DNA from: Candidatus Zambryskibacteria bacterium RIFCSPHIGHO2_02_FULL_43_14
Lineage (GTDB): Bacteria > Patescibacteriota > Minisyncoccia > Phycocordibacterales > Zambryskibacteraceae
Length of the DNA: 46,290 nt
Reading direction: 5' to 3'
Assembly (NCBI GenBank): GCA_001825315.1
Contig: MHVR01000015.1
Span: forward strand, 1-46,290
Shown: one piece after another, positions 1-21,222 of the stretch
How the letters are laid out: the number at the start of each line of letters is the position of its first letter
How positions within the stretch are numbered: the stretch's first letter is position 1
Notes under the pieces: model-generated
Seen by the model: the letters and a program-made list of their open reading frames with translations, nothing else
The model's database searches: none
What the model was told of the DNA's origin: nothing
Translations under genes and position numbers: made by a program

Positions 1-206
1 GGATTGTAACGAAGAGAGTAAATATCTACACCATCGATGGCTGCTCCTTTGGTATCTAAGTTAATGTCTACTGTGAAGGTCTGACCGACGGGAATAGTAG
101 TAGATGACGGAGTAAGAGTCAGCACAGCCACTGGTATAGAATTTAAGCCTGCAGAAAGTTGCGCCAGTAAAACAAAAATGTAACCTAAAATTGTTTTTTC
201 TATCAT
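1..206 (-). CDS. cohesin-like domain protein, N-terminal part (gene runs off the left edge)
   Basis: The ATG is at 206-204. My translation is MIEKTILGYIFVLLAQLSAGLNSIPVAVLTLTPSSTTIPVGQTFTVDINLDTKGAAIDGVDIYSLRYNP. This is a hydrophobic leader followed by a segment that aligns with ORF 10733..11296 (pattern F.[VI]DI.LDT....IDGVD...L.Y[ND]P). Confidence 0.6.
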   Translation of the reverse strand, partial: MIEKTILGYIFVLLAQLSAGLNSIPVAVLTLTPSSTTIPVGQTFTVDINLDTKGAAIDGVDIYSLRYN

Positions 207-246
207 AGTCTAATTATACAAATTTTTTGTATTAAATAAATTTCGA

Positions 247-405
247 TTATCCACTCTTTAGCCAATTCCCGTTCATGATAGAAAAGTCTAAGGAGTTCAC
301 AATGCCATCCTCATTCAAATCAACCGTTGAATCATTCGTAAACCACCTGCTGTTCATTATAGACCAATCCAAGGAATTTACTATATGATCGTTGTTTATA
401 TCTCC
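247..405 (-). repeat. dockerin-module coding repeat, copy 1 of 9
   Basis: Two D.N.D..VNSLD loops. It shares an identical 38-nt tract (332..369) with copy 3 (3734..3771). Confidence 0.75.
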
Positions 406-1731
406 TTTGAAAATTGGAGGAATCACAGTAGGGGTTGGAGCAGGTGTGGGAGAAGTTCCACTTGAGCTTATTTTAAATACATGAATAATTGGTGTAAGCC
501 CGTTGGCAAAACTTTCGCTTACGTAAAGCAAGCTGTTGTTGCGGTCAAAAGTCATTAAAACAACTTCAGCCCCGCTACCAGTAGTCAGAAAAGTCGGCGC
601 ATAATTTCTCAAAAAATAGGGAGTCATATCAAACTTGGCATACCATTGCGGAATCCAGGAAGATTTTGTTCCATTAGCCACATCAGCCATGTCTTTCGGA
701 TCATAAAACAGCATTGCCGCTTGCGGTTCTCCCGCACGCCAGCCTCTTTGGCCTTTGCAGGTTCCGGACGGCTCGCAAGCATTCGGCACAGTCCAATTTT
801 CATATCCATAATAACTTTTCGCGGGATTATTATCTATTATGCCGCTTATGGCAACAGCAGCTTTATCGCCTAGAGTAAGCCACGCCCCGCCCTGGTAAGC
901 ATTGGCTGTTGAGTGCTGCTTGCTCCACTTTGATTGGTCTAAAAAAGGACCAAATTCCATTAACTTAGAACCGCTGATGCTTTCTCCTGCTGCGGTGGCA
1001 GTATTGGAAGCATAAAGATTGGTTCCTTCCCGGTCGCACCATCCTCTATGCCGACCGGTTGCCACATACTTTCCGCCAAGATTGGCATCAGCAAAAGATT
1101 TGGGAATCTCCATAATGTACCTTGTTGAGGTGAAAGGGTGTAAATTACTCCCATTAAGACTTACATACCACAGACCATTGGTTTGCGGATTGGACAGGTT
1201 GGGTGAAAAACGACCAAGGCCCGGGGCATTGCCGGGCAAAGAGCAGTCGGATTGGGAATCAGAGTAATCCTGCCCTTGGGTAAAATAGATTTTTCCATCG
1301 GATGGAATATAAGTCATGCCCATTATAAAACCTGTTTTATTGGAAATTCCGGCAGTTACATCTTTGAACGGCTGTAAAAGCGTGGCGGTGGGCAAATCGC
1401 TTAAGTTTTTGGAAATTATCGGCTTAGGAATACCTACTTCCGCAACTTTGGTTGCGTAAACATGACCTCCGACAAACAAAGAGCCAGAATAACCGTCAGA
1501 GGATCCGCCGGGATCGCCGCTCGGATAAAAAGCTATCGGCGCGTTAGAATATTCAAAAACGCCGTAACTGCCGTCATTTACGGAGGGCAGTTTGAATGCG
1601 CCCAAATAACTAATGTCGCTTGGCTGAATCAAAGAGGAAGCCGCGGCTTTGGACAAAAAATTCCCAGAAGGATAAATGAATACGCTGACTGCAAACAATA
1701 TTGCAAAAAAATAGCGGGTAGAATTTTTCAT
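247..1731 (-). CDS. secreted protein with C-terminal dockerin module; main domain not recognised
   Basis: 494-aa ORF. It has an N-terminal signal-like segment (YFFAILFAVSVFIYP), a P/T linker (SPTPAPTPTVIPP), and C-terminal GDINNDHIVNSLDWSIMNSRWFTNDSTVDLNEDGIVNSLDFSIMNGNWLKSG. Confidence 0.8.
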   Translation of the reverse strand: MKNSTRYFFAILFAVSVFIYPSGNFLSKAAASSLIQPSDISYLGAFKLPSVNDGSYGVFEYSNAPIAFYPSGDPGGSSDGYSGSLFVGGHVYATKVAEVGIPKPIISKNLSDLPTATLLQPFKDVTAGISNKTGFIMGMTYIPSDGKIYFTQGQDYSDSQSDCSLPGNAPGLGRFSPNLSNPQTNGLWYVSLNGSNLHPFTSTRYIMEIPKSFADANLGGKYVATGRHRGWCDREGTNLYASNTATAAGESISGSKLMEFGPFLDQSKWSKQHSTANAYQGGAWLTLGDKAAVAISGIIDNNPAKSYYGYENWTVPNACEPSGTCKGQRGWRAGEPQAAMLFYDPKDMADVANGTKSSWIPQWYAKFDMTPYFLRNYAPTFLTTGSGAEVVLMTFDRNNSLLYVSESFANGLTPIIHVFKISSSGTSPTPAPTPTVIPPIFKGDINNDHIVNSLDWSIMNSRWFTNDSTVDLNEDGIVNSLDFSIMNGNWLKSG

Positions 1732-1741
1732 ACTCTTTTTT

Positions 1742-3637
1742 TCAATGCTTTATATGAAGCGTACTGCCGAGGAGAATGCCATTGGCCCAATAAAATCCGG
1801 TGTTGCCCGATGGTAGTATATCGTATGTAGCGCCGTCATCGTAGGAAACGCGCTCAACGCTTGCGACCAAAGCCCCATCATATAGATCCCCGGGCCTAAG
1901 ATCACCAACAGTTCGTCCGTCACTGGTAGGATGCCCGGGAGAAACTAACAATTCCCTGCCATCATCTAGAATTAAACGGGCCATTTGATGAGATGGCGAC
2001 ACCTGAACCTTTGAAGTTTTAATTACAGAGCCTAAAACGCGGTCGCCTTCTTTGCCCGCTGTCCAAACAGACATACCGGTTTGTAGATTTTTTACCCTAA
2101 CCGATCCGAAAGGCGTATCAATGAGCGTATCTTCTGCAAGACAAATGGGACAAGGGCGATTTAAATCCATAATTTTAGCAAAAGTTGCGGTGTCCCCTTG
2201 AATTGACGCCAACGTTAGAGTAATTGTGCAGCCATTGCTTGCTGTTTCTCCAATTTTCAGCGTGACCGGATATCCTTGATTTACAGCCACCGGATATTCC
2301 GGATAATTCAACCCGGTCACATAGTCAGCGTATATTTTTTGTAGAATAAACGGGCCTTCTCGCTGGCCTTCCTTGAGTGTAACATGTGAACTTCCAAGCC
2401 CACTTTTCAGCCAGTTCCCGTTCATAATTGAGAAATCCAGAGAGTTCACGATTCCGTCACTGTTTAAATCAGCAGCGCTATCGCTGGTAAACCACTTACT
2501 GTTCATAATTGACCAATCTAACGAATTAACAATACCATCTCTATTAAGATCACCCTTCAACGTACTGATTGGCGGGGTTAAAGACGCTGATTTTAATCTA
2601 ATCCTGAATATTCTGTCATCATTTGATGCTGGAGTTCCGCGGCCATCTTTATTGCTAGTTGAAAAATATAACCAGCCGTCATGCGCCACAATACCTCGCA
2701 GTCTGCCGAAATTTTGGAAAAGAGCTTGATCCATCACTAAATTATTGTTGTTATCTACTACTACTCTTCTGATTTGTTTGCCTCTTAATCCAGCCATATA
2801 GATATCGCCTTGATATACGGCTATACCAGAAGGAGCCAAGGTAAATTCAGAAAAGCATCTTATGGGCTGCTTAATATTAGGATCAGATTCATTGCACTCA
2901 ATATCAGGCCAGCCATAATTATTTCCCTTTACCGCCAAATTTAGTTCATCATTGCTGTTATTGCCGTGCTCGGCCGCATAAAAAGAGCCGTTTGAAGGGT
3001 TCCAGGCTATGCCTTGGGGATTTCTATGGCCATAAGTCCAAACAAGATTGCCGAACGGATTATCGCCTGGGATGCTGCCGTCTTTATTGAGGCGCAAAAT
3101 TTTCCCGGCTAGAGAATTAGTATTTTGCGCGGAGGCCGCGTTAACCGCGTCACCGGTAGTGGAATATAATTTGCCGTCAGGACCGAAAGCAAGTCTTCCG
3201 CCGTCGTGATTGGAAGCAGCTGGAATATTGTCCAAAATCACTGTTTCATTAGTGAGAGATGTACCGTTGAAAATAAATCTTGAAATTCTGTTCCCAGTCG
3301 TGCGAGTATATTGAATATAAATATAATTATTAGAGCCGAAGTCTGGATCCACAGCCAAACCCATTACTCCCGTTTCGGAACCGCTGTACAAACTTGTAAC
3401 CTGTCCTATTGTCTGAATAGCCCCAGATGATTCTCTTAATTTAACAGCACCCGTTCTTTCGGTAAATATCATCCGCCCGTCAGGAAAAAAATCCATTGAC
3501 CAAGGTACACTTAGTCCACTGGCAAATGTCTCTATTTCAAAATCGCTGTCGCTTAGATTAGCGGTTTGGGCTTTAGTTTGTAGAAACGCAATGAGTGTCG
3601 CAAAAAGTATGATTGCAAAAAACCCGATTTTTTTCAT
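1742..3637 (-). CDS. secreted PQQ-dependent sugar dehydrogenase-like beta-propeller, with an internal dockerin and a C-terminal Hint domain
   Basis: 631 aa with a signal peptide. The motifs PWSMDFFPDGRMIFTER, HDGGRLAFGPDGKLY, GHRNPQGIAWNP and EHGNNSNDELNL..GNNYGWP are typical of soluble aldose/sorbosone dehydrogenases. The dockerin covers aa 362-411 and the Hint domain covers aa 499-631. Confidence 0.8.
   Translation of the reverse strand: MKKIGFFAIILFATLIAFLQTKAQTANLSDSDFEIETFASGLSVPWSMDFFPDGRMIFTERTGAVKLRESSGAIQTIGQVTSLYSGSETGVMGLAVDPDFGSNNYIYIQYTRTTGNRISRFIFNGTSLTNETVILDNIPAASNHDGGRLAFGPDGKLYSTTGDAVNAASAQNTNSLAGKILRLNKDGSIPGDNPFGNLVWTYGHRNPQGIAWNPSNGSFYAAEHGNNSNDELNLAVKGNNYGWPDIECNESDPNIKQPIRCFSEFTLAPSGIAVYQGDIYMAGLRGKQIRRVVVDNNNNLVMDQALFQNFGRLRGIVAHDGWLYFSTSNKDGRGTPASNDDRIFRIRLKSASLTPPISTLKGDLNRDGIVNSLDWSIMNSKWFTSDSAADLNSDGIVNSLDFSIMNGNWLKSGLGSSHVTLKEGQREGPFILQKIYADYVTGLNYPEYPVAVNQGYPVTLKIGETASNGCTITLTLASIQGDTATFAKIMDLNRPCPICLAEDTLIDTPFGSVRVKNLQTGMSVWTAGKEGDRVLGSVIKTSKVQVSPSHQMARLILDDGRELLVSPGHPTSDGRTVGDLRPGDLYDGALVASVERVSYDDGATYDILPSGNTGFYWANGILLGSTLHIKH
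1745..2143 (-). other. Hint (Hedgehog/intein-like) autoprocessing domain at the extreme C-terminus
   Basis: The domain starts CLAEDTLIDTPFGSVRVKNL (Cys-1 plus a T.I.T-type block A). It contains LVSPGHP (a TxxH-like block B) and ends YWANGILLGSTLHIKH followed by the stop. No C-extein follows. Confidence 0.6.
2405..2554 (-). repeat. dockerin-module coding repeat, copy 2 of 9 (internal, not C-terminal)
   Basis: GDLNRDGIVNSLDWSIMNSKWFTSDSAADLNSDGIVNSLDFSIMNGNWLK, at aa 362-411 of the 631-aa ORF. Confidence 0.75.
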
Positions 3638-3648
3638 AATTCTTCAAT

Positions 3649-3807
3649 TTAAACAGTCTTCAGCCAGTTTGAATTTAGAATTGAGAAATCTAAAGAATTA
3701 ACAATTCCATCGCTATTCAAATCAACAGTGGTATCATTCGTAAACCACCTGCTGTTCATTATAGACCAATCTAGCGAATTGACTATCTTGTCATTATTGA
3801 GATCACC
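3649..3807 (-). repeat. dockerin-module coding repeat, copy 3 of 9
   Basis: Same two-loop module as the other copies. Its 38-nt tract 3734..3771 is identical to 332..369. Confidence 0.75.
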
Positions 3808-5637
3808 TTTGAGAAAAGTGGTACTGTTACTATCAATAACAAGTTGCTTAATTTCTTTCATCTTCTGAACAGCCAACCAGCCACGGAGAACGTAACCGTT
3901 ATTTCTCAAAGCCTCGCCGGTTGTGTGAGTAGACGGATCGCCGCCGTATTGGTAAGGATCGCTTCCTCCGCCAAATCCCCCTGCGTTAACGGCATAATGC
4001 ACTCCGTCTCCGGAGAGAAAAGTTCCTCCCCATTCAGAGAATGGCCTGCGAGCCAGCATCTCGGCATTCAAATCAATTAGTGGCAGTTTCATCTCTTTTG
4101 CCAGATTTTTTATAGCATTATTATAAACATCAACCGCGGGATTGAAAGAAGGATTGCCGCTTATGCGATAAGTATAGGTGGAAAGTATTGGAACGATTTT
4201 TTTTGATATTAAAACATCAAGAATTTTTTTTAGATCTGTTACATTTGACGGATTCTCATAATAAAGATTGAATAGCGGGATTGCAAACTGCGCGTCAGGA
4301 AAAGCTGAAACAATAGTTGTTATATTCAGCGAGCTCGGATAGCTAGCGCAATCTTCAAGTTTTTGTTTTGCGGTTACGGAATTGGTATCAGCCGGCATTG
4401 AAGTCCCCAAAAAATCCCAAGTCCCACGTCCATCGCCTACTGTTCTGCTTCGGCTTGGGCAATGGTATTCGGTTGCAAGCGCAAAACCATCATAACTATT
4501 TATTGTAGCTGGAGCGGGACTGGCATGTAGCCACTGCGTAATCATTTTATCTTCAACAGTTTTTCCGTTTCCAGCTCTTGCCCATGCCCCGTAAGAATAA
4601 TCACGAGTCAAAGAATCGCCAAGGTGAAGCAGAAAGCCCTGAATTTTATTGGAACCGGCAAGTATTGATTTTGCATTGGCAACCCAGCCGTTTGACCCAT
4701 CCTGCCAAGCGTCATCATAAGAATTAGCACGATTTTTATTGTTATCTGAAGTCGTTTTGACATTTATTGTTACTACTTGGCTTGCGGATCCTGCCCCGTT
4801 TGTGGCCCTTAATGTATACGTGGTAGAAAGTTTTGGAGAAATTGAACGCGTTCCTGATACAGCAACGGTTCCAATACCATGATCAATATTTACTGCCGTT
4901 GCGTTAATCGCGTCCCAAGAAAGTGTTGTTGATTGTCCAACAATAATCGTAACGGGTGAAGCGGTAAAAGTGGAAACAGGCAACAAGGATTGATTAATGG
5001 ATTGCTGACCAGCAACGTTAACATGGTCAAAAATGGCATCTGTCAATAGACCATCCCTATGACTTGTAACAACCAGTCCAATATAAACATTTGTATTTAA
5101 CGTAAGAATAAGACTTCCTGCCTGGCTCCAACTAATACCGTCATTGGAAGTATACGCAACAAATGAATCGTCTATCCTTTTTAATTTAAGCCAGATCGGA
5201 GCTGTGCCAACGACTGAATTATAATTTGATATCTCGGCAGCCTCGGCGCGCTGTTGAAACGTCAGTCCGTTTGAAGGAGAAACCAGTAGAGCAACATTTC
5301 TTGATCCGGCTGTCAGATTCTCGCGGATCATAATTCCCGCTTTTGCCCACGGGTCGGTTTTTTGGATACTCACGACTTGGGTGATAATTTCCCCATCTCC
5401 GGACAATGGCTGATAAACATAAAAAAACTCATCTCCCCTGTTCCAGATATCATCGCCGGCGCCGCTTAAGTTAAAAACGCCATTGTTTATCAACGCTGTA
5501 CCAGGAGCGCTGACTTCTCCGATATCCTGCGCTAACCAAGGACTTAATAAAGATAATCCAACGGCATGAGTTTTTGGAGTCAAGATAATCAGTGAAATGA
5601 AAAAAAGCGAGATGACAAAAAATAATACACTCTTCAT
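3649..5637 (-). CDS. secreted ConA/LamG-like lectin domain, Ig-like domain, SGNH/GDSL hydrolase and dockerin
   Basis: 662 aa with a signal peptide. The N-terminal jelly-roll-like region has DDIWNRGDEFFYVYQ..WAKAGIMIR..YTSNDGISW. The SGNH blocks are GDSLT (block I) and GDGVHY (block V). The C-terminal dockerin is GDLNNDKIVNSLDW...DLNSDGIVNSLDF. Confidence 0.75.
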   Translation of the reverse strand: MKSVLFFVISLFFISLIILTPKTHAVGLSLLSPWLAQDIGEVSAPGTALINNGVFNLSGAGDDIWNRGDEFFYVYQPLSGDGEIITQVVSIQKTDPWAKAGIMIRENLTAGSRNVALLVSPSNGLTFQQRAEAAEISNYNSVVGTAPIWLKLKRIDDSFVAYTSNDGISWSQAGSLILTLNTNVYIGLVVTSHRDGLLTDAIFDHVNVAGQQSINQSLLPVSTFTASPVTIIVGQSTTLSWDAINATAVNIDHGIGTVAVSGTRSISPKLSTTYTLRATNGAGSASQVVTINVKTTSDNNKNRANSYDDAWQDGSNGWVANAKSILAGSNKIQGFLLHLGDSLTRDYSYGAWARAGNGKTVEDKMITQWLHASPAPATINSYDGFALATEYHCPSRSRTVGDGRGTWDFLGTSMPADTNSVTAKQKLEDCASYPSSLNITTIVSAFPDAQFAIPLFNLYYENPSNVTDLKKILDVLISKKIVPILSTYTYRISGNPSFNPAVDVYNNAIKNLAKEMKLPLIDLNAEMLARRPFSEWGGTFLSGDGVHYAVNAGGFGGGSDPYQYGGDPSTHTTGEALRNNGYVLRGWLAVQKMKEIKQLVIDSNSTTFLKGDLNNDKIVNSLDWSIMNSRWFTNDTTVDLNSDGIVNSLDFSILNSNWLKTV

Positions 5638-5638
5638 T

Positions 5639-5797
5639 TTACAGTGTTTTCAACCAATTCCCGTTCATGATTGAAAAATCCAAAGAATTGACAATACCGT
5701 CGCTATTTAGATCTGCGGTTGAATCACCGGTAAACCACTTACTGTTCATCATTGACCAGTCAAGAGAATTAACTATGCGGTCGTTGTTAAGATCGCC
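5639..5797 (-). repeat. dockerin-module coding repeat, copy 4 of 9
   Basis: GDLNNDRIVNSLDWSMMNSKWFTGDSTADLNSDGIVNSLDFSIMNGNWLKTL. Confidence 0.75.
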
Positions 5798-7297
5798 TTT
5801 GAGAGTTGGGGAAGGAGTTGGGGTGGGGGTTGGAGTAGGAGACGGTGGGGGTGGGCTGATAGAAGGAGGCGGGCAATTAGAAGTGCAATTATTGGATTGG
5901 GTGTTATTACTGCCGCCACTGATACTTATCGTACCGTGGCGAGAATTAACAATTGAATTGTCGTGAATTCTATAGTTGCTGCAGTTTCCATCAATTGTAA
6001 TTTGCGCTTGCCAGGTAAAATTAATGGAATTGTTGGAAAGATAATTGCCAAAGATATCAACATTGTTAGATGAAATTTCGCATGAACCTCTTATGCCAGC
6101 GCCCACGTTATCCGTAATAACATTACCGCTAACCACAAGATTGTCTGGGCTGGCAGGACCCGCAGTATTATCGCTTTCAATTCTTACACCTTCGTAATTA
6201 TTTCTTACAACCGTATTGTTTTTAAATACTACATTTTTTGAACGAATAATGATTCCCGGCCCGGCTCTTTGCTGGTCATATTCTTTGCCATACCCCGCTG
6301 AACATTGCGAACTCCAGCCAGAGTCCATTGATGCGTCATGGAAAACATTATTTTCAAAAGTATGCCCGCCACCGCTGGTAGTATCATCCGTGTGTATCAA
6401 TTCCGCCACATCTTGGGAAAAATCGCTGTTGCGAACAATAATTCCAGGTCCCCCGCCAATACCCATGCTATGACCATTGGTGCCATCTCTGGAAGGAGCG
6501 CAAACATTATTGCCGTTATAGCTCATCTTAATATTTTGAAAAGTTATATATGAAGCTGTGTTGTGCACTTGATAGGCTTGCACTGTAGCGGCAATCTCAT
6601 CAATACCATCGACTACCCAATTACTAACTCCATTATCAAATTCGAGCATGAACCCGCAAGCGGCATAAGTAACTGGCATACTGGTTGGATTAGTGCCATT
6701 AGCTGGGTGATAATATATTTTTTTGGCGCCGGGATCCATATTATACCAATCACCGTTGTTTGGAGGAGAAAAGTTGCCTGTCTTGGTACTTGGAATTAAT
6801 TTGTTGCCATTCCATAACTGACCCCATCGCACAGGATTAAGTGCACCCGTACTCGCCCAGTTGAAACTTATCACCCACCAACCAGCATGACTATCCTGTT
6901 GCCAAGTCCCACCGCCAGACTTAACATCAAAGCGACCATCGAGTAACACGTCTGCGTTATTGTATGCTTTTAAAGTTATCGGATTGCCGCTAGTTCCGCT
7001 TTTCGCCGGAAACATTTCACAATTATTATTTCCTCCTGGAGCATTCGGGTCAATATGATAACTTCCGGCCATAGCGTTTATCACATCCCCCGGACTTAGA
7101 CTGTTACTGGAAACAGCTCGCTCAATTGTTTTCCAGGGTTGAGATTCCGTACCTGGATTTGAATCAGAACCAGATGGTGAAATAAAGTATGTAGCAGCAT
7201 CGACTGAAGAATAGAGAGTGAGGAAAGTAAAAACAACGATACTCTGGATAAAAATTATCTTTTTTAAAAAATCCTTTATTTTTGTTCTCATAATCAT
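5639..7297 (-). CDS. secreted right-handed parallel beta-helix protein with dockerin
   Basis: 552 aa. After the signal/TM segment it reads ATYFISPSGSDSNPGTESQPWKTIERAV, an N-terminal cap typical of pectate-lyase-fold proteins. It has repeated N/G/V-rich beta-helix turns, the linker PPPSPTPTPTPTPSPT, and a dockerin. It abuts the stop codon of the upstream gene (0-nt gap). Confidence 0.8.
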   Translation of the reverse strand: MIMRTKIKDFLKKIIFIQSIVVFTFLTLYSSVDAATYFISPSGSDSNPGTESQPWKTIERAVSSNSLSPGDVINAMAGSYHIDPNAPGGNNNCEMFPAKSGTSGNPITLKAYNNADVLLDGRFDVKSGGGTWQQDSHAGWWVISFNWASTGALNPVRWGQLWNGNKLIPSTKTGNFSPPNNGDWYNMDPGAKKIYYHPANGTNPTSMPVTYAACGFMLEFDNGVSNWVVDGIDEIAATVQAYQVHNTASYITFQNIKMSYNGNNVCAPSRDGTNGHSMGIGGGPGIIVRNSDFSQDVAELIHTDDTTSGGGHTFENNVFHDASMDSGWSSQCSAGYGKEYDQQRAGPGIIIRSKNVVFKNNTVVRNNYEGVRIESDNTAGPASPDNLVVSGNVITDNVGAGIRGSCEISSNNVDIFGNYLSNNSINFTWQAQITIDGNCSNYRIHDNSIVNSRHGTISISGGSNNTQSNNCTSNCPPPSISPPPPSPTPTPTPTPSPTLKGDLNNDRIVNSLDWSMMNSKWFTGDSTADLNSDGIVNSLDFSIMNGNWLKTL

Positions 7298-7456
7298 CTA
7301 ACCGTTCTTCAACCAATTTCCATTCATAATGGAAAAATCCAGAGAATTAATAATGCCATCGCTATTCAAATCAGCAGTGGTATCGTTTGTATACCATCTA
7401 CTATTCATTATGGACCAATCCAGAGAATTGACTATTTTGTCGTTGTTCAGGTCACC
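7298..7456 (-). repeat. dockerin-module coding repeat, copy 5 of 9
   Basis: GDLNNDKIVNSLDWSIMNSRWYTNDTTADLNSDGIINSLDFSIMNGNWLKNG. Confidence 0.75.
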
Positions 7457-8965: not shown

Positions 8966-9120
8966 ATTTGTTTTAGCCAATTCCCGTTCATGATTGAGAA
9001 GTCCAAAGAATTAACAATACCGTCGGTGTTTAGATCGGCAGTGACATCATTCATAAACCACCTGCTATTCATTATAGACCAATCCAGAGAATTGACTATG
9101 CGATCATTGTTAAGGTCACC
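8962..9120 (-). repeat. dockerin-module coding repeat, copy 6 of 9
   Basis: The 59-nt tract 9038..9096 is identical to 14647..14705 in copy 9. Confidence 0.75.
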
Positions 9121-10758
9121 CCTTAAAGTTCCGGGTGTCGGAACCGGGGTTGGGGTTGGCGATGGGTTAGGATTGGTAAATCCCGATTCAAATGCTCCCA
9201 TATCTGGAGCTGATCCGGCATACGGCAAACTCACGCCATCTCCTGCGTTCCAACTAATCGCGGAAACCAAGGTAATATTATGGCTTGAATAATCAATAGA
9301 CTTAATCTTAACCGGAGCATTTGATCCGACTTTGATTGCATCCGCTTCAATCATGCCATCATAGCCGTCTTGAAAAAATCCACTTCTTACGACTGGGACG
9401 ACAGTTCCATTTCCCGAAGAACGGGTTGCTGTCAGCTGATTACCCGCGTCAATAGCCGGACTGCCTGAAGCTAAACGATAATCACGACCGGATGAATTAA
9501 CAAACAATCCTGATGCGGAACCGATTTCTTTGCCTTTAGGCTCCTGCCCGGTCGATTTAAATGAAGCCAAATTTGAATACACTTGATCCCACAATATTCC
9601 TTTGGGCCCGAACTTGTACATATTTCCTTCCATATTAATTGACCCGCGATTAACACTGCCAAAAGCTCCATGCAAAACATAATTTTGACTATCTATAAAT
9701 AGATTATTAATAAAAGTGATTCCGAAAGACGTATTTGAGGAATCGCCGAAAAGCACGTTATGATTATTCTCGTTGACCATTGTATTGTTAAAAATCGTAG
9801 TGTTGTTATAGGGCGGAGAGTAAAAAGTCAGCTGGCCTTCAGTCGTCATGTTGTTGTATCTCATAATCGCATTTGAAGTTCCCAAACCGCTGAATTTAGT
9901 CCCGCCATTTTTGCCGTAAATAGTATTGTTTTCAACCAGATAGTAACCTGCGTCAGAATTTCTCCCCCCCAAATCAATGCCATCTGCATCGCCGGATAAA
10001 TTATTGTTGTAAACCGTATTATTCCTAACCACTACATGATGCGCCCCGCAGCCAAATCCGTTAAAAACATCTCCCCCGCCGACACCGATTGCGTCGTAAT
10101 TATCAACCCCTGCGTTGTTGTACACAATATTATTTTCAATCAAATAATATCCGCCGAAGGAACATTCGTAAACAAAAATACCTCCTACGGTATTATCGTG
10201 AATATTATTTCCACGAATAATAGCGTCGTGGCGAAGATTTCGAGGTAGATTAGGATTAGAACCTCCGGTGCCAATACCATGCATTGCATTATGGTGAATA
10301 TGATTATTGATAAACCAAACACCCATACTTCCACCCCCATCAATGCCGCTACCGTCATACCGAGCGCTTTTGATGCCATTCCTGATTTCAAAACCTTCTA
10401 TGGTAATATAGTCAGCCGGAGAAAAAAGATTTCCGCTAACAGCGCCGCCTCCTTCAATAACAGGTGTTTCTCCCGGATAATTTTTGTAAGTAATTCTAGC
10501 GTTAACGGTTCCGGCTTTTGCGCGAACCGCTTCATTATAAATTCCTCCCCGAACCAAAACCGTATCGCCAGGCTGCATCGTGTTTCCGGCTTTGTTAATT
10601 GTCCGCCACGGCGAAGATTCAGCACCGGGATTAGAATCAGTACCACTGGTTGACACATAATAAGTGGCTGCTTGCGCTCTTATAGAAAAAGTAAAAGTAG
10701 CGAGAAGAAATAACCCTGAGGCAAAAAGATATTTAGGGCTCAATTGAATAAACAGCAT
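8962..10758 (-). CDS. secreted parallel beta-helix protein with dockerin
   Basis: The ORF track start at 10764 is a TTG. An ATG at 10758 gives MLFIQLSPKYLFASGLFLLATFTFSIRAQA, followed by ATYYVSTSGTDSNPGAESSPWRTINKA. It has beta-helix repeats, a linker (NPNPSPTPTPVPTP) and a dockerin. Its 5' end overlaps the 3' end of the cohesin-like gene. Confidence 0.8.
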   Translation of the reverse strand: MLFIQLSPKYLFASGLFLLATFTFSIRAQAATYYVSTSGTDSNPGAESSPWRTINKAGNTMQPGDTVLVRGGIYNEAVRAKAGTVNARITYKNYPGETPVIEGGGAVSGNLFSPADYITIEGFEIRNGIKSARYDGSGIDGGGSMGVWFINNHIHHNAMHGIGTGGSNPNLPRNLRHDAIIRGNNIHDNTVGGIFVYECSFGGYYLIENNIVYNNAGVDNYDAIGVGGGDVFNGFGCGAHHVVVRNNTVYNNNLSGDADGIDLGGRNSDAGYYLVENNTIYGKNGGTKFSGLGTSNAIMRYNNMTTEGQLTFYSPPYNNTTIFNNTMVNENNHNVLFGDSSNTSFGITFINNLFIDSQNYVLHGAFGSVNRGSINMEGNMYKFGPKGILWDQVYSNLASFKSTGQEPKGKEIGSASGLFVNSSGRDYRLASGSPAIDAGNQLTATRSSGNGTVVPVVRSGFFQDGYDGMIEADAIKVGSNAPVKIKSIDYSSHNITLVSAISWNAGDGVSLPYAGSAPDMGAFESGFTNPNPSPTPTPVPTPGTLRGDLNNDRIVNSLDWSIMNSRWFMNDVTADLNTDGIVNSLDFSIMNGNWLKQI

Positions 10759-11296
10759 TTTCAACTTGGATTAGTTGATCTTGACCTTGATATGCCACAT
10801 TGGTATCAGTCGTGCTTCCTGGTTTGAAATCAAATTTTAAATTAGACACTCCCATCTTGACGGCCTTAAAATGTATAGTGGCCAAAATTCCCCTTCCGGA
10901 GAAATTCGTGCCGCCTGTCGCTACTTGGCTAAATTTAATAGTACCCGCGGATTGATCTACAATATTGGCCGCATTGATCGATAAAATTGAGCCTGCCTGA
11001 ATCTGGATTCCTTCTTGTTCTGGAATATCGTCAACTACCTGGATAACTAATGGATCGTAATGCAAAACAAACACATCCACTCCGTCAATTGGCTGGTTTG
11101 CCGTGTCTAAAACAATATCAATTGCAAATAGACTGTTTAATTTCGCGGTTTCATTATTCGGATCTAATAACAATATCGCACCGACTTTGGAATCTTGAGT
11201 GTTTACATCCAAAGATCTGTTTTTATCAATTAAAAAAATAATCACGCCAAGAGCTAATAAAGCAAGGACCCCGTATAAAATTTTTTGTTGTTGCAT
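10733..11296 (-). CDS. membrane-anchored single cohesin-like domain protein
   Basis: 187 aa. It has an N-terminal TM segment (ILYGVLALLALGVIIFLI). The rest follows the cohesin pattern: FAIDIVLDTANQPIDGVDVFVLHYDPLVIQVV ... AGSIL ... GTIKFSQVATGG.NFSGRGILATIHFKAVKMGVSNLKFDF. Confidence 0.7.
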   Translation of the reverse strand: MQQQKILYGVLALLALGVIIFLIDKNRSLDVNTQDSKVGAILLLDPNNETAKLNSLFAIDIVLDTANQPIDGVDVFVLHYDPLVIQVVDDIPEQEGIQIQAGSILSINAANIVDQSAGTIKFSQVATGGTNFSGRGILATIHFKAVKMGVSNLKFDFKPGSTTDTNVAYQGQDQLIQVENAVYSIEP

Positions 11297-11319
11297 ATTT
11301 AGTTATTAATTATTTTAAA

Positions 11320-11478
11320 TCATACGCTTTTCAACCAATTCCCATTCATGATGGAAAAATCCAGAGAATTAACGATGCCGTCGATGTTCAAATCAGCAGC
11401 GGTATCATTCGTAAACCACCTGCCATTCATTATAGACCAATCCAGAGAATTGACGATCTTGTCATTGTTGAGATCACC
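11320..11478 (-). repeat. dockerin-module coding repeat, copy 7 of 9
   Basis: GDLNNDKIVNSLDWSIMNGRWFTNDTAADLNIDGIVNSLDFSIMNGNWLKSV. Confidence 0.75.
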
Positions 11479-12960
11479 CTTGAGAATTGAACCACCACTT
11501 GATGAAGGCGTTGGCGCAGGTCCGGTTGAACCACCGCTACCATATTCAATCGCACCGGCATCAGGGGCAGCGCCGTTGTATGGGAGACTTACGCCATCCC
11601 CGGCACTCCAAGTTATAGAACGATCTATAGTGACAGTATTATTCCCTGCTGCTTCGCCTACTGCTATTACTTTTACAACATTAGAACCTATCTGAATCGT
11701 ATCTCCATCTGTCAGGCCATACCCATCAAAAAAATAAAAACTGTCATCTACTGGCACGACAGTACCGGATCCGCTACTTCTGGTTTTAGTTAAAGCTCCT
11801 CCCGCGTCAATAGCATCACCGCCAGATGCTAATCTGAAATCTGTTGTTGAAAGACTGGCAAATAACTGGCTCAAACTTTGGGTTGAATATTTTCCCCCAC
11901 TTGGTTCTTGACCGGTAACAGTTCGCCAGCGATTATATTCAGCCAAGCTTGTGCCATAATTGGATTCTCCGCTTAGCATAGCCCAAATAATGGCTTGGTT
12001 TGAGAAGCGGTAAACATTGTGATCCATTCTAATGCTTGGCCATGCTCCATCAGCCGCATCCCGCGAATGCTGTAATAAATAACCTCCGGAGTACGCAAAA
12101 ATATTATTTTTGACGCTAACACCGCCCCAACCAGACGGGCCATCGCCATCCTGCCAAAACATAATACAGTTATTCAGACAATTAACTGCTGTATTATTAT
12201 AAATGGCAACTTCTTTAAACGGTTTGACGTAAAAAGTAAAACTCGTTCCGGTTATAGTATTGCGACGTAAAATCGAGCGGGTGGGAACTTTGTTGATTTT
12301 AATTTTACTTTCGTATGGATTATTTAAACATGATCCGGTGCAATAAGCAGTATTGCCATCATAAACTATGTGATGAATATTGCTTTCCAAGCTGCCGGCA
12401 TCAATGAAGTCGCCAATACCAGGACCCGGACTCCATAAAACATTATTTTTTACTACAAGATAATTGGTTCCATGAATTTCTATTCCGTCCCAGTTGTCTT
12501 TGCCTAACCAATCATGAATCCTATTGCCTTCAATCAAAAAATGACCGCCTGCGTCCCACATTACTATTCCACCTTGCGTACAATTATATACTTCATTATT
12601 GCGAATCTTGTGTCCGGAGCCGGTTAACCAAACGCAACTGTCATTTGAATTCCTGATTATCAAGCCCTCAATTGTGTTATTACTCCCATTTACTCTTAGT
12701 GGCACCGAGCCGTTACCTGCATCTAAAATCGGAGTCTCTCCTGGGTAATTTTTTATTGTCATATTACTTCCAGAAACGGTAAATCCACCGTTATAAGTAC
12801 CTCCTCGAATCTGAATCACATCTCCAGAAACGCCAAGGGCTGATTGAAGTTCTGAACTGCTAGAGACAGTTCTTGTGGCTGCAGTGACAGCCTTGCTAAA
12901 GCCAAAGGACAAAATAAACAAAATCCCAAGAATAATAAAATTAAGGATTTGATTCTTCAT
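11320..12960 (-). CDS. secreted parallel beta-helix protein with dockerin (paralog of 7298..8965)
   Basis: The ORF track start at 12975 is a TTG. The ATG at 12960 forms an ATGA overlap with the upstream stop. The first 26 residues are identical to the paralog. Confidence 0.8.
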   Translation of the reverse strand: MKNQILNFIILGILFILSFGFSKAVTAATRTVSSSSELQSALGVSGDVIQIRGGTYNGGFTVSGSNMTIKNYPGETPILDAGNGSVPLRVNGSNNTIEGLIIRNSNDSCVWLTGSGHKIRNNEVYNCTQGGIVMWDAGGHFLIEGNRIHDWLGKDNWDGIEIHGTNYLVVKNNVLWSPGPGIGDFIDAGSLESNIHHIVYDGNTAYCTGSCLNNPYESKIKINKVPTRSILRRNTITGTSFTFYVKPFKEVAIYNNTAVNCLNNCIMFWQDGDGPSGWGGVSVKNNIFAYSGGYLLQHSRDAADGAWPSIRMDHNVYRFSNQAIIWAMLSGESNYGTSLAEYNRWRTVTGQEPSGGKYSTQSLSQLFASLSTTDFRLASGGDAIDAGGALTKTRSSGSGTVVPVDDSFYFFDGYGLTDGDTIQIGSNVVKVIAVGEAAGNNTVTIDRSITWSAGDGVSLPYNGAAPDAGAIEYGSGGSTGPAPTPSSSGGSILKGDLNNDKIVNSLDWSIMNGRWFTNDTAADLNIDGIVNSLDFSIMNGNWLKSV

Positions 12961-13115
12961 ATTTGTTTTAGCCAATTTGAGTTAAGAATGGAAAAATCCA
13001 GAGAATTGACTATGCCGTCGGTGTTTAGATCAGCAGTGGTATCATTCGTAAACCATCTGCTATTCATAATTGACCAATCAAGAGAGTTTACGATGCGATC
13101 ATTGTTAAGGTCACC
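12957..13115 (-). repeat. dockerin-module coding repeat, copy 8 of 9
   Basis: GDLNNDRIVNSLDWSIMNSRWFTNDTTADLNTDGIVNSLDFSILNSNWLKQI. Confidence 0.75.
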
Positions 13116-14558
13116 TTTGAGAACAGTAGGAGTTGGAGTCGGGGGAGGTGTTGAACCTGAAGTACCGCCATATTCGTAAGCGCCGATGTCAAAAGCCGAG
13201 CCGACTGGACGATTTACACCATCATAGTCCTTTGTTGCTTCAGATAAAGTTGTTCCGGCATTAATGGCGGGAGAACCTGATTGCAACCGGAAATCCGGAA
13301 CAATTGTACTAAATTTGGATCCCGGAAGTTTAACGAACTTTGGATCTGCAAATATCCCGTGTGAGTCTTGTGAAGGCTTTGTCCCTCCGCCGGTAGAGTA
13401 CCAAAGGTTATAATCTAGAATATTGCTTCCGACATTGCCGGAAAGCAAGCTGCCGCCATTGCTGCTGTAAATAATATTGTTTTTAAAAATGGAGTTGGTG
13501 GCTAAATTACTGTTAATTTCAAGGTTGCCATCCGGATTATTAACTATGACATTGTTGTAAACTCTGATATTGCTTGCCACTCCGGCGTGAGCGCCAACGA
13601 GAATGCCCCAATTAGAATTGTTAAAGACAATGTTATTCCTGACTATAATATTGCTGGCGCCGTAAGAATTTTCAGAACCCACTTCAATTCCCCACCAATT
13701 ATCATGAATGTAATTATTCTCAATTATCGTGTCGGTTCCGCCGTCAATATAGATCCCGCCAGACCAGCAAAAATAGCTGCCGCTGTAAATGTGGTTGCGG
13801 GTGATCAGTCCTCCTTTGGGTTGACTGCCCGCGCCATGGCCTAAGACATCTATGCCAATGTTCGGATGGCCGTAGATTGTGTTGTTGGATATGGTAAAAC
13901 CGTTCACGTTCCCGTCAACAGTGATGGATTCGCTATCTCCGGTATTATTATTGAAGACTTCGTTATTATCAATAATAATGTTGGATCCGCCCATTATTCT
14001 AATTGGTGTGGAATACTGCGTTCCTTGGCCTGGGCATATGGTGCTATTGGAAGCCCAGTCAATATGGGTAATTTTGCCGTCTCTAAACTCAATATTATTG
14101 GAGGATCCTGTAACGATAAAACCTCCGGGTATGTATCCCCCGACATGATTAGTTAGATGCAGACCGATAAATTTAAGATAGTTTTTATTGTTAATATTTA
14201 TTATTCCGCGAACATCACCGGAAGCAATATCACCCTTGCCATCTATAATGGCTGTCTCACTTGGGGCGTTTCTAAAAGTAATATAAGCGCCAGCGGTTCC
14301 GCTGACATTTACATTCAATATTTCATAGTATGTCCCGCCTTTTATATTAACCGTACTTCCTGCTGTTGCTGAATTCATAGCCTTTTGGATAGTTTTCCAA
14401 GGCGCGCTCTGTGTCCCAGGATTGCTGTCACTGCCATTAGTAGCGACATAGTATTGGGTTGAGGTTTGAGATTTGACTGGCAGACTGGGATATAAAACAG
14501 ATACAACCAAAGTGAAAATTAAAACTAACCAGGTGTACTTTGATATTTTTTGTTTCAT
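12957..14558 (-). CDS. secreted parallel beta-helix protein with dockerin
   Basis: 533 aa. It has a signal peptide, QYYVATNGSDSNPGTQSAPWKTIQKAM, many NN.I.N-type beta-helix turns, a linker (TPPPTPTPT) and a dockerin. Confidence 0.8.
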   Translation of the reverse strand: MKQKISKYTWLVLIFTLVVSVLYPSLPVKSQTSTQYYVATNGSDSNPGTQSAPWKTIQKAMNSATAGSTVNIKGGTYYEILNVNVSGTAGAYITFRNAPSETAIIDGKGDIASGDVRGIININNKNYLKFIGLHLTNHVGGYIPGGFIVTGSSNNIEFRDGKITHIDWASNSTICPGQGTQYSTPIRIMGGSNIIIDNNEVFNNNTGDSESITVDGNVNGFTISNNTIYGHPNIGIDVLGHGAGSQPKGGLITRNHIYSGSYFCWSGGIYIDGGTDTIIENNYIHDNWWGIEVGSENSYGASNIIVRNNIVFNNSNWGILVGAHAGVASNIRVYNNVIVNNPDGNLEINSNLATNSIFKNNIIYSSNGGSLLSGNVGSNILDYNLWYSTGGGTKPSQDSHGIFADPKFVKLPGSKFSTIVPDFRLQSGSPAINAGTTLSEATKDYDGVNRPVGSAFDIGAYEYGGTSGSTPPPTPTPTVLKGDLNNDRIVNSLDWSIMNSRWFTNDTTADLNTDGIVNSLDFSILNSNWLKQI

Positions 14559-14570
14559 AAAGATGTTTAG

Positions 14571-14729
14571 TTAAATTGTTTTCAACCAATTCCTGTTCAT
14601 TATGGAGAAGTCTAGAGAATTAACAATACCGTAGGTGTTCAAATCAGCAGTGACATCATTCATAAACCACCTGCTATTCATTATAGACCAATCCAGAGAA
14701 TTGACGATCTTGTCGTTATTAAAGTCGCC
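14571..14729 (-). repeat. dockerin-module coding repeat, copy 9 of 9
   Basis: The 59-nt tract 14647..14705 is identical to 9038..9096. Confidence 0.75.
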
Positions 14730-16310
14730 TTTGAGAGTTGTGGTTGGAGATGGAGGAGTAGAGGCCGGAGAGACAGTTCCTCCGCTATTACAGCTGTTTC
14801 CTGATTGAGTATGAGAACTTCCTGATTCCGAAACATTAACACAACTCCCGCTAATGCCATTCATTACGTTATTCGTAATGGTGCCACCAGCGACTCCCCT
14901 TGCAAATTTAATGCCGTCTTCAGCCTCGCCATGGGTTGCGGATCTGTTATCAATGGTATTGTTGCGTACTATCGGACGATTAAGAGTTTCTCCGTTTTGA
15001 GAAATATAAAAAACGCCAGCAACATCTCTGCCGCCATAGCCCTTTGATGAATCGCGGACTATATATCCAAAATTATAGATATTATTATTTTCAACAATCA
15101 CATCATTAGAAGTAACTCCGCCATTGGTAGAATTGGTAACTTCTACTCCATTGGCAAGGTTATTGTGCATCTTGTTGCCTCGGACAACGCAGCTGTTGCA
15201 ATTTTTGATAATGATGCTCATGCCCAGATTATTGCCGTTTCCTCCGCCGTCCCACCAGCCCATGCCGTTGTCGTACACATCCATATTTTCCACGATGTGC
15301 CCAAAAAGCTGAACGCCGTTACCATTGGATCCTCCCGGTCCTCCACCGTAAAATTCAATACCTTCTCCCATTGATTCGCGGCAAATGCCGTTTTTAACGG
15401 TAATATTACTGCCACCGTAAACGCGAACGCATGATCCGTAATCACGGCCCCCGTGAGCCACAAAATTGATGCCATCCAATGTGATATTTTGAGCGCTTCC
15501 ATTAGCCCAAAATCCGTAATAGCCATATTTTACGTAAAAAGATCCGCCCGAAGGATTTCTTCTTACAACCACATTATTGGCTCCGCTTTCAGCATCAATC
15601 GGATAAGCAGCACAGTCGCCATTTTGGCAAGCAATGTGAATGTCTGCATTATTTGGATTAGCATCGCTTGGAAGACGAACCGAAATTGTGTTGCCGGAAG
15701 ATCCAGTACTTGTAAACTGTCCCGGCTGAAGCGAAGAACAAGATCCACCGCTAACCCACTTTAATCTTGTTCCTGGATCGTCTGGTCCTGAAGGATTTAC
15801 CCAAACTTGCGCGGTATTTGAACTACCAATATTTAAAGCATTGGTCTGCCAACCGCTTCCGCAGGATGACCAAATTCCAGAAACAACTTTAGGACTTGTC
15901 CCGTCAATAATCACAGTTTCACCCGGATAGTTTTCTATCGTAATACCTGAAATCTTAAGCGGAAGCACGGTATCTATTCCATTTCCGGAAATATTACAAG
16001 GCACCCCTCCAAAACCACTGTTTATTTTGTAAGTACCGCCTCGCAAAATCAATGTATCCCCTGCCGTAACTAAATTGTGAGTCAAGACATAAAACGGATT
16101 TGACCAAGGGCTTGAAACTGTACCGGAACCGCTGTTGGCTGTGCAGTCTGTTGAAAGTGAAGCCACAAAGTAAGTTGCCGCATTTACCACAGAATTAAAA
16201 CCAAAAAAGAAGACACCAAACACACCAACGATTAGAACCCTGTGTAGATATTTCACAGTATACATTGTAACAAAGTTGTCTTTATAAAATTCAATCTTAT
16301 GCACAACCAT
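14571..16310 (-). CDS. secreted parallel beta-helix protein with dockerin (first gene of the array)
   Basis: 579 aa. An alternative ATG at 16265 (MYTVKYLHRVLIVGVFGVFFFGF) gives a more typical signal peptide. It has beta-helix repeats and the dockerin GDFNNDKIVNSLDW...DLNTYGIVNSLDF. The second loop has Y in place of the canonical D/G. Confidence 0.8.
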   Translation of the reverse strand: MVVHKIEFYKDNFVTMYTVKYLHRVLIVGVFGVFFFGFNSVVNAATYFVASLSTDCTANSGSGTVSSPWSNPFYVLTHNLVTAGDTLILRGGTYKINSGFGGVPCNISGNGIDTVLPLKISGITIENYPGETVIIDGTSPKVVSGIWSSCGSGWQTNALNIGSSNTAQVWVNPSGPDDPGTRLKWVSGGSCSSLQPGQFTSTGSSGNTISVRLPSDANPNNADIHIACQNGDCAAYPIDAESGANNVVVRRNPSGGSFYVKYGYYGFWANGSAQNITLDGINFVAHGGRDYGSCVRVYGGSNITVKNGICRESMGEGIEFYGGGPGGSNGNGVQLFGHIVENMDVYDNGMGWWDGGGNGNNLGMSIIIKNCNSCVVRGNKMHNNLANGVEVTNSTNGGVTSNDVIVENNNIYNFGYIVRDSSKGYGGRDVAGVFYISQNGETLNRPIVRNNTIDNRSATHGEAEDGIKFARGVAGGTITNNVMNGISGSCVNVSESGSSHTQSGNSCNSGGTVSPASTPPSPTTTLKGDFNNDKIVNSLDWSIMNSRWFMNDVTADLNTYGIVNSLDFSIMNRNWLKTI

Positions 16311-16968: not shown

Positions 16969-17279
16969 CTATCTTTACTATAAAAAACAGAATAATGTTT
17001 GGTGTATATCTCATGTATTTCGTGCGAAAATTGAAAAACCCTTTTATTGCTGAAACTTTCGTGTTTGTCATTCTTGCAATAATTCTGTTTACTTTTATTT
17101 CAGTGCCAAGTATTTTATCAAACATGCTCGATTCGGGAAATTTCTATCGTTATTTTGTTATGGCCTTTTCTAATACAGAGATTTTTGTTCAATTAACCCT
17201 TATCCTAACGGGTATTGCCACACTACTTTTCGTGCGAAATATCACTGTTCACGCTATACTCAAAACACGCTTCGCATAG
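16965..17279 (+). CDS. small multi-TM membrane protein, translationally coupled to the sigma factor (possible anti-sigma role)
   Basis: 104 aa. It has an ATGA overlap with the sigma gene stop and about three hydrophobic segments. I recognise no motif. Confidence 0.6.
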   Translation: MTIFTIKNRIMFGVYLMYFVRKLKNPFIAETFVFVILAIILFTFISVPSILSNMLDSGNFYRYFVMAFSNTEIFVQLTLILTGIATLLFVRNITVHAILKTRFA

Positions 17280-20549: not shown

Positions 20550-20654
20550 ATCACCATTCCTCAAGCCCTCAATCATAATGAATATGATATCAAATTGTAA
20601 ATAAAAGATATCCACACAAACAAGAAATCACATATCAGTCGCATATCCTTACTG

Positions 20655-20726: not shown

Positions 20727-20795
20727 AGTTCGAAATAACGGCTCTAATCTTATAGAATTTTAAGTCTTTTTGCAAAACAACACTTGATTGCACCC

Positions 20796-21164: not shown

Positions 21165-21222
21165 ATTTTTATCTTTATTATTAAATACTATTACATTATA
21201 CTCTTAATTTCAATTTATAATT

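Follow-up and report, generated by a model that had tools for sequence, protein, structure and literature searches.

In Clostridium thermocellum (OlpA, OlpC and SdbA) and Ruminococcus flavefaciens (ScaE), a single cohesin on an envelope anchor takes up dockerin-bearing proteins directly. Protease inhibitors can also take part in such assemblies, as with the serpins that carry dockerins in the C. thermocellum cellulosome, and noncellulosomal cohesin-dockerin pairs, with examples in Archaeoglobus fulgidus and Clostridium perfringens, were reportedly catalogued by Peer et al. in 2009. In the amylosome of Ruminococcus bromii, cohesins and dockerins assemble non-cellulases (PMC4611034). As regards Patescibacteria, also called the Candidate Phyla Radiation (CPR), a 'two-subunit cellulosome' has been annotated in the Saccharibacteria member T. 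rhizospherense (10.1101/211649), cohesin and dockerin proteins have been detected as expressed in Candidatus Shapirobacterales (10.1101/2021.08.21.457207), and the latter study cites a cellulosome of Candidatus Roizmanbacterium. Cohesin-dockerin display of non-cellulolytic enzymes is an established principle, and annotations have already pointed to it in CPR. The window analysed here, 46,290 nucleotides of contig MHVR01000015.1 from Candidatus Zambryskibacteria bacterium RIFCSPHIGHO2_02_FULL_43_14, holds at 1..16310 an operon which, judging from its sequence and from structural models, we hold with good confidence to encode a cohesin-dockerin system retaining secreted enzymes on a patescibacterial cell. 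It has the look of a reduced relative of the cellulosome, not directed at cellulose, with two unusual add-ons.

Like OlpA, OlpC, SdbA and ScaE, the anchor protein of this locus bears one cohesin that would receive dockerin proteins directly, and two members of its family (P0020 and P0021) even carry an LPxTG signal, as ScaE does. The differences lie in the anchor itself, an N-terminal transmembrane (TM) helix with a very short stalk instead of S-layer homology (SLH) repeats or a sortase signal, and in the CPR lineage, the absence of a multi-cohesin primary scaffoldin and the absence of cellulases. With the amylosome and the noncellulosomal pairs the locus shares non-cellulase cargo and small scaffolds, some of them cell-anchored; it departs from the amylosome in that the cargo consists of beta-helix lyase/hydrolase-like proteins, an esterase and a pyrroloquinoline quinone (PQQ) dehydrogenase rather than GH13 amylases, in the 27-residue period of the dockerin repeat and in a cohesin-Kazal fusion. 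The CPR 'cellulosomes' likewise combine cohesin and dockerin domains in Patescibacteria, but those are one-sentence annotations read as cellulose degradation, whereas this locus has no cellulase. Neither the TM-cohesin family with its conserved cassette, nor a single dockerin type spread over nine cargos, nor a cohesin-Kazal protein or Hint tail is described in those papers. A cellulosome in the strict sense it is not: the locus offers two single-cohesin proteins, and neither a multi-cohesin scaffoldin, nor a carbohydrate-binding module (CBM), nor cellulases were found in it; a Coh-FN3-CBM9-Coh protein was seen only in a relative, L014. In a literature search whose coverage left out many subscription papers, no description was found of the TM-cohesin family, its gene cassette, the cohesin-Kazal fusion or the dockerin-X-Hint arrangement.

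The locus comprises eleven tightly packed minus-strand genes, ten complete open reading frames (ORFs) and one crossing the contig start (1..206). The nine spacings between complete ORFs are 10, 11, 1, 0, -19, -32, 23, -19 and 12 nt. The co-directional arrangement with gaps of 0-23 nt or overlaps, as given by an earlier reading made from the letters alone (hereafter the sequence-only reading), is correct save for a 40-nt gap between the truncated gene and its neighbour, the sole departure from that pattern. The GC content (0.42-0.44) is the same as in the remaining sequence. Since the same genes were recovered on at least 12 independent contigs from several samples, the locus is real, and an assembly chimera or artefact is ruled out.

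Nine of the genes encode proteins with one copy each of the same short, type-I-like dockerin. A six-frame motif scan of the whole 46 kb confined the Ca-loop pattern to nine large ORFs, with 17 loops in total; an 18th, the second loop of one module with Tyr at an Asp position, was missed by the scan. The nine modules, each of 51 aa, align without gaps and share 33 invariant columns, the consensus (n=9) being KGDLNNDxIVNSLDWSIMNSRWFTNDxTADLNxDGIVNSLDFSIMNGNWLK, which agrees with the near-invariant GDLNND...WFT.D..ADLN module originally noticed. All nine exceed the gathering score of PF00404 (Dockerin_1), with 26.9-36.3 bits against 22.9. Two tandem F-hand segments can be recognized, whose 12-residue Ca loops show little or no variation among the nine (D-L-N-N-D-x-I-V-N-S-L-D in the first, D-L-N-x-D-G-I-V-N-S-L-D in the second). 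Furthermore, a profile of the nine dockerins matches the solved C. thermocellum CelS dockerins 2MTE/1DAQ (E 8e-6) with both loops in register (D1, N3, D5, N9, D12), so that the dockerin architecture of two EF-hand-like Ca loops, previously proposed by eye, is borne out by the profile and by the CelS alignment. Compared with CelS, 5 residues are missing from the stretch that joins the first Ca loop to the second repeat, and the repeat period is therefore 27 instead of 32 residues. The nine proteins have the signal peptides ascribed to them, each with a basic n-region, a hydrophobic core of 14-21 residues and an AxA-like site, and a Pro/Thr/Ser linker precedes the dockerin in 7 of 9, in line with the 'usually' of the first description.

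The two halves of the module are identical at 15/21 positions (14/21 in CelS), and of the classical recognition positions, 10/11 hold Ser-Leu in either half, while 17/18 hold Asn-Ser and Asn-Gly. Because the halves are so alike and share these positions, a dual-binding mode is plausible. Between modules, identity averages 86% in protein and 78% in DNA, with synonymous differences at 45% of the codons for identical residues, and the cargo parts of the nine proteins are mostly unalignable to one another by BLASTP. These figures indicate long-term selection at the protein level, that is, old copies kept by purifying selection, as expected with a shared binding partner. Recent gene conversion as the source of the dockerin identity is ruled out by the same 45% of synonymous differences. 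The module of 14571..16310 (14580..14729, minus strand) is peculiar in reading DLNTYG, with Tyr for Asp at position 5 of loop 2, and in having Phe for Leu in its first loop; this could weaken one of the two Ca sites and, with it, a binding face.

The counterpart of these plugs is a 187-aa type-II membrane protein (10733..11296) with a TM helix at aa 6-23 (11228..11281) and a single cohesin domain at aa 40-186 (10739..11179). It scores 27.2 bits with PF00963 (cohesin), above the gathering threshold of 24.1, and AlphaFold2, run with an alignment of 19 homologs, gives a confident model (predicted local distance difference, pLDDT, 91.1; predicted template-modelling score, pTM, 0.75) with a helix over residues 2-28 followed by an all-beta sandwich. 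Searching this model against the PDB with Foldseek, the top 50 matches consist entirely of cohesins (types I, II and III; E 1.9e-9 to 5e-7, target-normalised template-modelling score up to 0.77). Many are chains taken from solved cohesin-dockerin complexes, and 3ul4 Coh-OlpA, 4dh2 Coh-OlpC, 2bm3 SdbA and 2zf9 ScaE are among the structures matched. The cohesin assignment of this gene is thereby upheld both by profile and by predicted fold.

Regarding its attachment, the N-terminus contains a hydrophobic stretch of 18 residues, and no signal-peptidase site (small residues at -3 and -1) was found in the protein, unlike the AxA-like sites of all nine dockerin proteins. In its homologs the TM helix is preceded by a longer cytoplasmic tail, often rich in His, and in P0020 and P0021 a C-terminal LPxTG-like signal replaces tail and helix. 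Since every member of the family keeps some envelope anchor, whether TM helix or LPxTG, the prediction that the 187-aa protein is an envelope anchor is well supported. The opposite reading would have the helix be a cleaved signal peptide, with both cohesins secreted in free 1:1 cohesin-enzyme complexes, serving for instance stabilisation or protease protection; the missing cytoplasmic tail of the 187-aa version would suit it, as would the second cohesin of the locus, which has a plausible cleavage site and no anchor. Nevertheless, the 18-residue core devoid of a (-3,-1) small-residue site, the modelled helix through residues 2-28 and the constant anchoring of the homologs, by tail plus TM helix or by an LPxTG sortase signal, leave it little probability. 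Only about 15 residues form the stalk between helix and cohesin, and any complex would therefore sit near the membrane. Most TM-cohesin homologs show a His/Trp-rich tail motif, e.g. WHDxxHHxxVHW, just before the helix, which is missing from the 187-aa version.

The second cohesin gene enters the window with its 5' part only (68 codons, 1..206, minus strand), the remainder being read from the overlapping contigs L010 and L009. Its full product consists of a signal peptide, a cohesin, an (SQ)n linker and a Kazal domain. On L010 (11526-12146) the cohesin scores 37.8 bits with PF00963 and is followed by a long (SQ)n run, and on L009 (11797-11983), past an N gap, the 3' end of the gene reads ...VACTTVYNPVCGVDGKTYSNYCVAVQQNNVQVLHFGAC up to its stop and is a Kazal domain (PF00050 Kazal_1, 41.2 bits vs a cutoff of 21), which lies outside the window. 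A plausible LSA|G cleavage site and the lack of an anchor suggest that this cohesin is secreted. Of the two short cohesin anchors first described, 10733..11296 stands, whereas 1..206, although its cohesin domain was rightly recognized, is no plain anchor; because it encodes an apparently secreted Kazal fusion, the two anchors are reduced to one, accompanied by a cohesin that bears an inhibitor. Being 47% identical over 146 aa, the two cohesins may bind the same dockerin. A protease inhibitor within a cohesin-dockerin complex recalls the C. thermocellum serpins, with the difference that the Kazal domain here is on the cohesin side, and on the dockerin side in a related contig protein, P0072, which shows the reverse arrangement of signal peptide, Kazal, dockerin of the same subtype and X-Hint. 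As for the truncation, the independent contigs L010, L011 and L012 end within this gene, L010 doing so inside the SQ-coding repeat, and L009 has its N gap there; the repeat probably accounts for the start of our contig at this point.

Whether plug and socket belong together was approached through relatives, with hidden Markov models from the locus dockerins and the cohesin family run on all retrieved loci. The named relatives are Candidatus Doudnabacteria and metagenome-assembled genomes of the 'Patescibacteria group', and together with the gene content they indicate a CPR/Patescibacteria bacterium. In every patescibacterial locus recovered with flanks the TM-cohesin gene adjoins further cohesin genes, and in all but L004 it adjoins at least one dockerin gene (L001, L003/L013, L005, L006, L014 and L016). 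Five independent loci (L001, L003/L013, L005, L006 and L016) share a cassette in the order large surface protein (in most cases with a dockerin at its end), TM-cohesin, cohesin-Big-dockerin adaptor and cohesin-FN3 or other protein. The co-occurrence survey proposed with the first description has thus revealed synteny of TM-cohesin and dockerin in other Patescibacteria, Doudnabacteria included. Large adhesin-like proteins of 980-1396 aa with LamG domains are held by the cassette in these relatives, where Coh-Big_7-Doc adaptors and large LamG-Doc surface proteins were identified (L006 4817-6445, L005 6895-9834). The closest relative is L014, whose cohesin is 57% identical and whose genes encode an unknown-Doc protein, a GSDH-Doc protein, the TM-cohesin, a beta-helix-Doc protein and a Coh-FN3-CBM9-Coh scaffoldin (5441-7216); the beta-helix protein, of the same architecture and closely similar in sequence, is an apparent counterpart of 5639..7297. 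At least two dockerin flavours exist, SLDWSIMN in this locus and L014 and SVDYSxLN in the adaptors, and since both can occur in one locus (L005), hierarchical specificity or assembly is hinted at.

In principle, the dockerin-like module might not pair with the neighbouring cohesins at all and could bind wall, S-layer or glycan, or be a stabilising EF-hand tail. Dockerin proteins are indeed common in genomes without cohesins, dockerins outnumber cohesins 9:2 in the locus, and the module is 5 residues shorter than the canonical one. We consider this very improbable in view of the close and conserved adjacency of this dockerin subtype and this cohesin family across several patescibacterial lineages, of the adaptor proteins which combine both modules, and of the strong conservation of the dockerin helix residues while the cargo diverges.

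Beyond these loci, the dockerin profile detected 4081 proteins at E <= 1e-3 (554 at E <= 1e-10) among 1.84 billion representatives. In 132 of the 147 best matches the dockerin lies at the extreme C-terminus, an anchor-like use, and Pfam domains on 81 representatives included Beta_helix (15), Big_7 (9), LamG (5), Peptidase_M23 (3), Amidase_3, GH26, GH43, GH130 and lyases. A 55-aa dockerin query against a set of 5.8 billion proteins returned only nine short fragments, uninformative as to cargo. Some proteins (P0176, P0177, P0193, P0196, P0198 and P0291) carry dockerins in tandem, up to 9 copies in 460 aa, and could cross-link cohesins or serve as inverse scaffolds.

Turning to the cargo, neither Pfam nor NCBIfam found a cellulase family (GH5/9/48 and similar) in any of the nine proteins, as had been stated from the translations. 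Five are beta-helix proteins above the Pfam Beta_helix threshold and a sixth (14571..16310) is assigned through paralogy alone, so that the count of six first given holds at two levels of support. The 552-aa protein 5639..7297 (dockerin 5648..5797) is a right-handed beta-helix protein of Pel9A/DUF1565-like type (Beta_helix 31.8, Pel9A-like 26.5, DUF1565 25.2, Dockerin_1 30.0 bits), and its N-terminus is similar to pectate lyase PelN. In coordinate order it is followed by the 560-aa protein 7298..8980 (dockerin 7307..7456), a 70% identical paralog of the 551-aa NosD-like protein 11320..12975 (dockerin 11329..11478), and by the 600-aa protein 8962..10764 (dockerin 8971..9120; Beta_helix 44.5, DUF1565 30.9, Dockerin_1 28.1 bits), whose N-terminus matches the GH120 xylosidase 3vst (E 2e-8) and the PL9 rhamnogalacturonan lyase 5olq. 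In the 533-aa protein 12957..14558 (dockerin 12966..13115; Beta_helix 44.0, Dockerin_1 33.8 bits) a 'choice-of-anchor Q' domain stands immediately before the dockerin (NF041518, 53.9 bits vs a cutoff of 25); the name presumably denotes a class of surface-protein domains with a variable C-terminal anchor, and with this meaning, taken from the name, the use of the dockerin as anchor fits. The sixth, of 579 aa (14571..16310), has Dockerin_1 (26.9 bits) as its only Pfam match and resembles the other beta-helix cargo by BLASTP only (E 1e-5 to 1e-9).

The remaining three cargo proteins are of other kinds. The 662-aa product of 3649..5637 (dockerin 3658..3807, Dockerin_1 33.7 bits) is a probable SGNH esterase with a weak N-terminal ConA/LamG-like region: the motifs GDSLT at aa 340 (block I GDS) and GDGVH at aa 543 (block V DxxH) occur at the expected spacing, but the esterase and lectin-like profiles stay below their Pfam gathering thresholds (Lipase_GDSL_2 22.1 vs 32.9 bits; DUF1349 17.4 bits). 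The 631-aa product of 1742..3637 has a signal peptide, the expected PQQ-type sugar dehydrogenase propeller (2639..3514) and a dockerin (2405..2554, Dockerin_1 36.3 bits). Its glucose/sorbosone dehydrogenase (GSDH) domain (PF07995) scores 269.9 bits over profile positions 1-329 of 332, while the NCBIfam subfamily model, with 166 against a strict cutoff of 434, is not reached. Finally, the 494-aa protein 247..1731 has a signal peptide and a dockerin (256..405, Dockerin_1 32 bits) and, as announced, belongs to no family recognized by Pfam or NCBIfam. When the 494-, 662- and 579-aa proteins were compared by sequence with the PDB, matches fell in the dockerin only.

The dehydrogenase departs from its companions in that its dockerin is internal (aa 362-411) and is followed by 220 residues (aa 412-631; 1745..2404, minus strand). 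They comprise a conserved domain of 87 residues, here called X (2144..2404), and a Hint domain of 133 residues from Cys499 to the end (1745..2143; Hint_2 27.0 bits vs a gathering threshold of 28.4). In the AlphaFold2 model of the module (pLDDT 88.6), Foldseek recovered inteins, the C. thermocellum bacterial intein-like (BIL) domain 2lwy, Tetrahymena BIL2 6y75 and Hedgehog 1at0, with E down to 2.8e-7. The nucleophile Cys499 is the first Hint residue and invariant in 30 homologs, and a block B S-P-G-H occurs at 566-569. No C-extein was found in the dehydrogenase protein, which ends ...GSTLHIKH, its homologs stopping a few residues past ...STL. Because nothing follows the Hint domain, splicing is impossible and only Hedgehog-like cleavage on its N-side would be possible. 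Thus the protein shares with Hedgehog autoprocessing and BIL domains the Hint fold, the first-residue Cys and the S-P-G-H block B, and differs from them in having nothing after Hint and, always, the conserved 87-residue X before it. From homology and model the tail is a predicted autoprocessing module, missed by the sequence-only reading. For the 220-aa unit 3255 homologs were detected (E <= 1e-3), of which the best 120 share 52-70% identity; most of the best ones are proteins of 230-385 aa with an N-terminal membrane helix and X-Hint at the extreme C-terminus. They come from Colwellbacteria, Parcubacteria and Acetothermia and, among archaea, from Nitrosopumilaceae and Methanoperedens. No conserved gene partner was seen beside the stand-alone X-Hint genes, and no paper on the unit was found in a literature search that left many subscription papers outside its coverage. 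The tail hints at a family of autoprocessing proteins that is widespread and so far unstudied.

Bringing these elements together, the nine proteins would be exported by the Sec pathway, after which the Ca-loaded dockerin of any of them would dock non-covalently on the membrane cohesin. They would compete for a single type of socket and remain at the cell surface and, because of this competition, the display would be exchangeable and set by expression levels. The cargo, i.e. five to six beta-helix proteins of PL9/GH120/pectate-lyase-like character, a probable SGNH esterase, an AA12-like dehydrogenase and one protein of no family, would cut or modify a non-cellulosic extracellular polysaccharide near the cell, and the products could be captured by a fermentative, biosynthetically poor organism. 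In addition, the cohesin-Kazal protein would bind these dockerins as well, whether on free enzymes or through the second, near-symmetrical face, bringing protease protection or capping, and the Hint domain of the dehydrogenase would cleave itself at Ile498|Cys499. The core of this scheme, one anchor displaying many cargos, was already present in the sequence-only reading and has been strengthened by profile scores above thresholds, the CelS alignment, the cohesin fold, the signal and anchor features, the selection acting on the dockerin, the lack of cellulases and the conserved linkage of both module types.

Several points weigh against it. On a walled cell a stalk of about 15 residues would place the complex under or within the wall, not truly exposed, and one socket type for nine plugs, together with a soluble competitor cohesin, is a puzzling stoichiometry. 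The models matched by the beta-helix proteins are generic ones or describe an N-terminal cap, with scores that fall far short of equivalog cutoffs, and the SGNH match is below threshold. Genomes of this kind would not be expected to encode PQQ synthesis, which makes the cofactor of the dehydrogenase uncertain. Moreover, these counts refer to the 46-kb window, and further cohesins or dockerins may exist elsewhere in the genome.

The same assembly could have another purpose, namely to attack or hold a host cell, with depolymerases, esterase and dehydrogenase acting on the capsule, extracellular polysaccharide or wall of a host or neighbour at the contact of an episymbiont. This would be in keeping with the same dockerin subtype on three Peptidase_M23 proteins and an Amidase_3 besides glycanases among the 81 representatives, with the very large adhesin-like proteins in the cassettes of relatives (980-1396 aa, LamG), with a type IV pilus operon nearby, and with the essentiality of a dockerin-domain protein in the epibiont Southlakia, for which the authors speculate on host glycans (PMC10633639). 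The present locus, on the other hand, has no peptidoglycan hydrolase, no host is known, and its PL9/PelN-like, GH120-like, SGNH and AA12-like cargo, like the CBM9 scaffoldin of L014, is typical of the use of plant or soluble polysaccharides. The host-envelope target put forward earlier was speculation; these cargo families and the L014 scaffoldin would suit free polysaccharide equally well. On balance, the cargo here and the CBM9 of L014 make us lean towards polysaccharide foraging, and host attack is a possible but minority alternative.

A wider and decidedly speculative idea, to which we give a low probability, is that the C-terminal dockerin and the membrane- or sortase-anchored single cohesin form a lineage-wide surface-sorting system of Patescibacteria, to which X-Hint would add a Hedgehog-like covalent transfer to an envelope acceptor. 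If so, it would be a counterpart of LPxTG/sortase or SLH anchoring, taking enzymes, adhesins, wall hydrolases and inhibitors, and self-cleavage by X-Hint (>3000 homologs, in CPR and some archaea) would activate the new C-terminus for transfer.

Enzyme retention on the cell, the reading we prefer, matters in the first place because the CPR/Patescibacteria represent a large share of bacterial diversity whose surface building and feeding are little understood. The system would show how cells stop secreted enzymes from diffusing away, and it offers a compact, testable model made of one 150-residue socket, one 50-residue plug and nine cargos. The conserved cassette could also help in predicting which proteins uncultured lineages carry on their surface, and the short dockerin-cohesin pair could serve as an orthogonal tag for designer complexes.

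With respect to expression, no convincing intrinsic terminator was found between the genes in a scan of the locus, in which terminator-like sites were fewer than in shuffled sequences, while promoter-like sites (59 vs a shuffle mean of 41.4, sd 7.6) showed a modest excess, mostly intragenic; both results are compatible with a single operon. Divergently from it, across an intergenic region of 103 nt, lies a gene for an ECF (extracytoplasmic function)-type sigma factor (16414..16968, plus strand; Sigma70_r2 57.4 bits, r4_2 40.8 bits), overlapped by one for a 104-aa membrane protein (16965..17279, plus strand). By analogy with SigI/RsgI, which control cellulosome genes, the two may be a sigma/anti-sigma pair controlling the operon.

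The remaining 30 kb or so encode tRNAs, GatCA, LigA, ComF, PurD and RecG, besides an entire type IV pilus operon that includes several pilins. The pilus set (28019..39713, minus strand), of a kind typical of CPR, comprises PilM/N/O-like proteins, PilB, a response regulator, PilT and PilC; with 3 major-pilin-like genes, a prepilin peptidase and 4 minor pilins it is complete, and it would be relevant if the display system served host contact. Closer to the operon, 17398..20064 (minus strand) encodes an 888-aa secreted protein with a weak PKD/Ig match at its C-terminus and a beta-helix-like region that resembles, at E 1e-6, the cargo 12957..14558; it has no dockerin and appears as a paralogous surface protein minus the plug. 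Four clustered tRNA genes (Thr, Asp and two Met) occupy 20654..23130 on the plus strand, and between them sits a gene of the Fic/DOC family (21755..22186, plus strand), the whole cluster being unconnected with the dockerin system.

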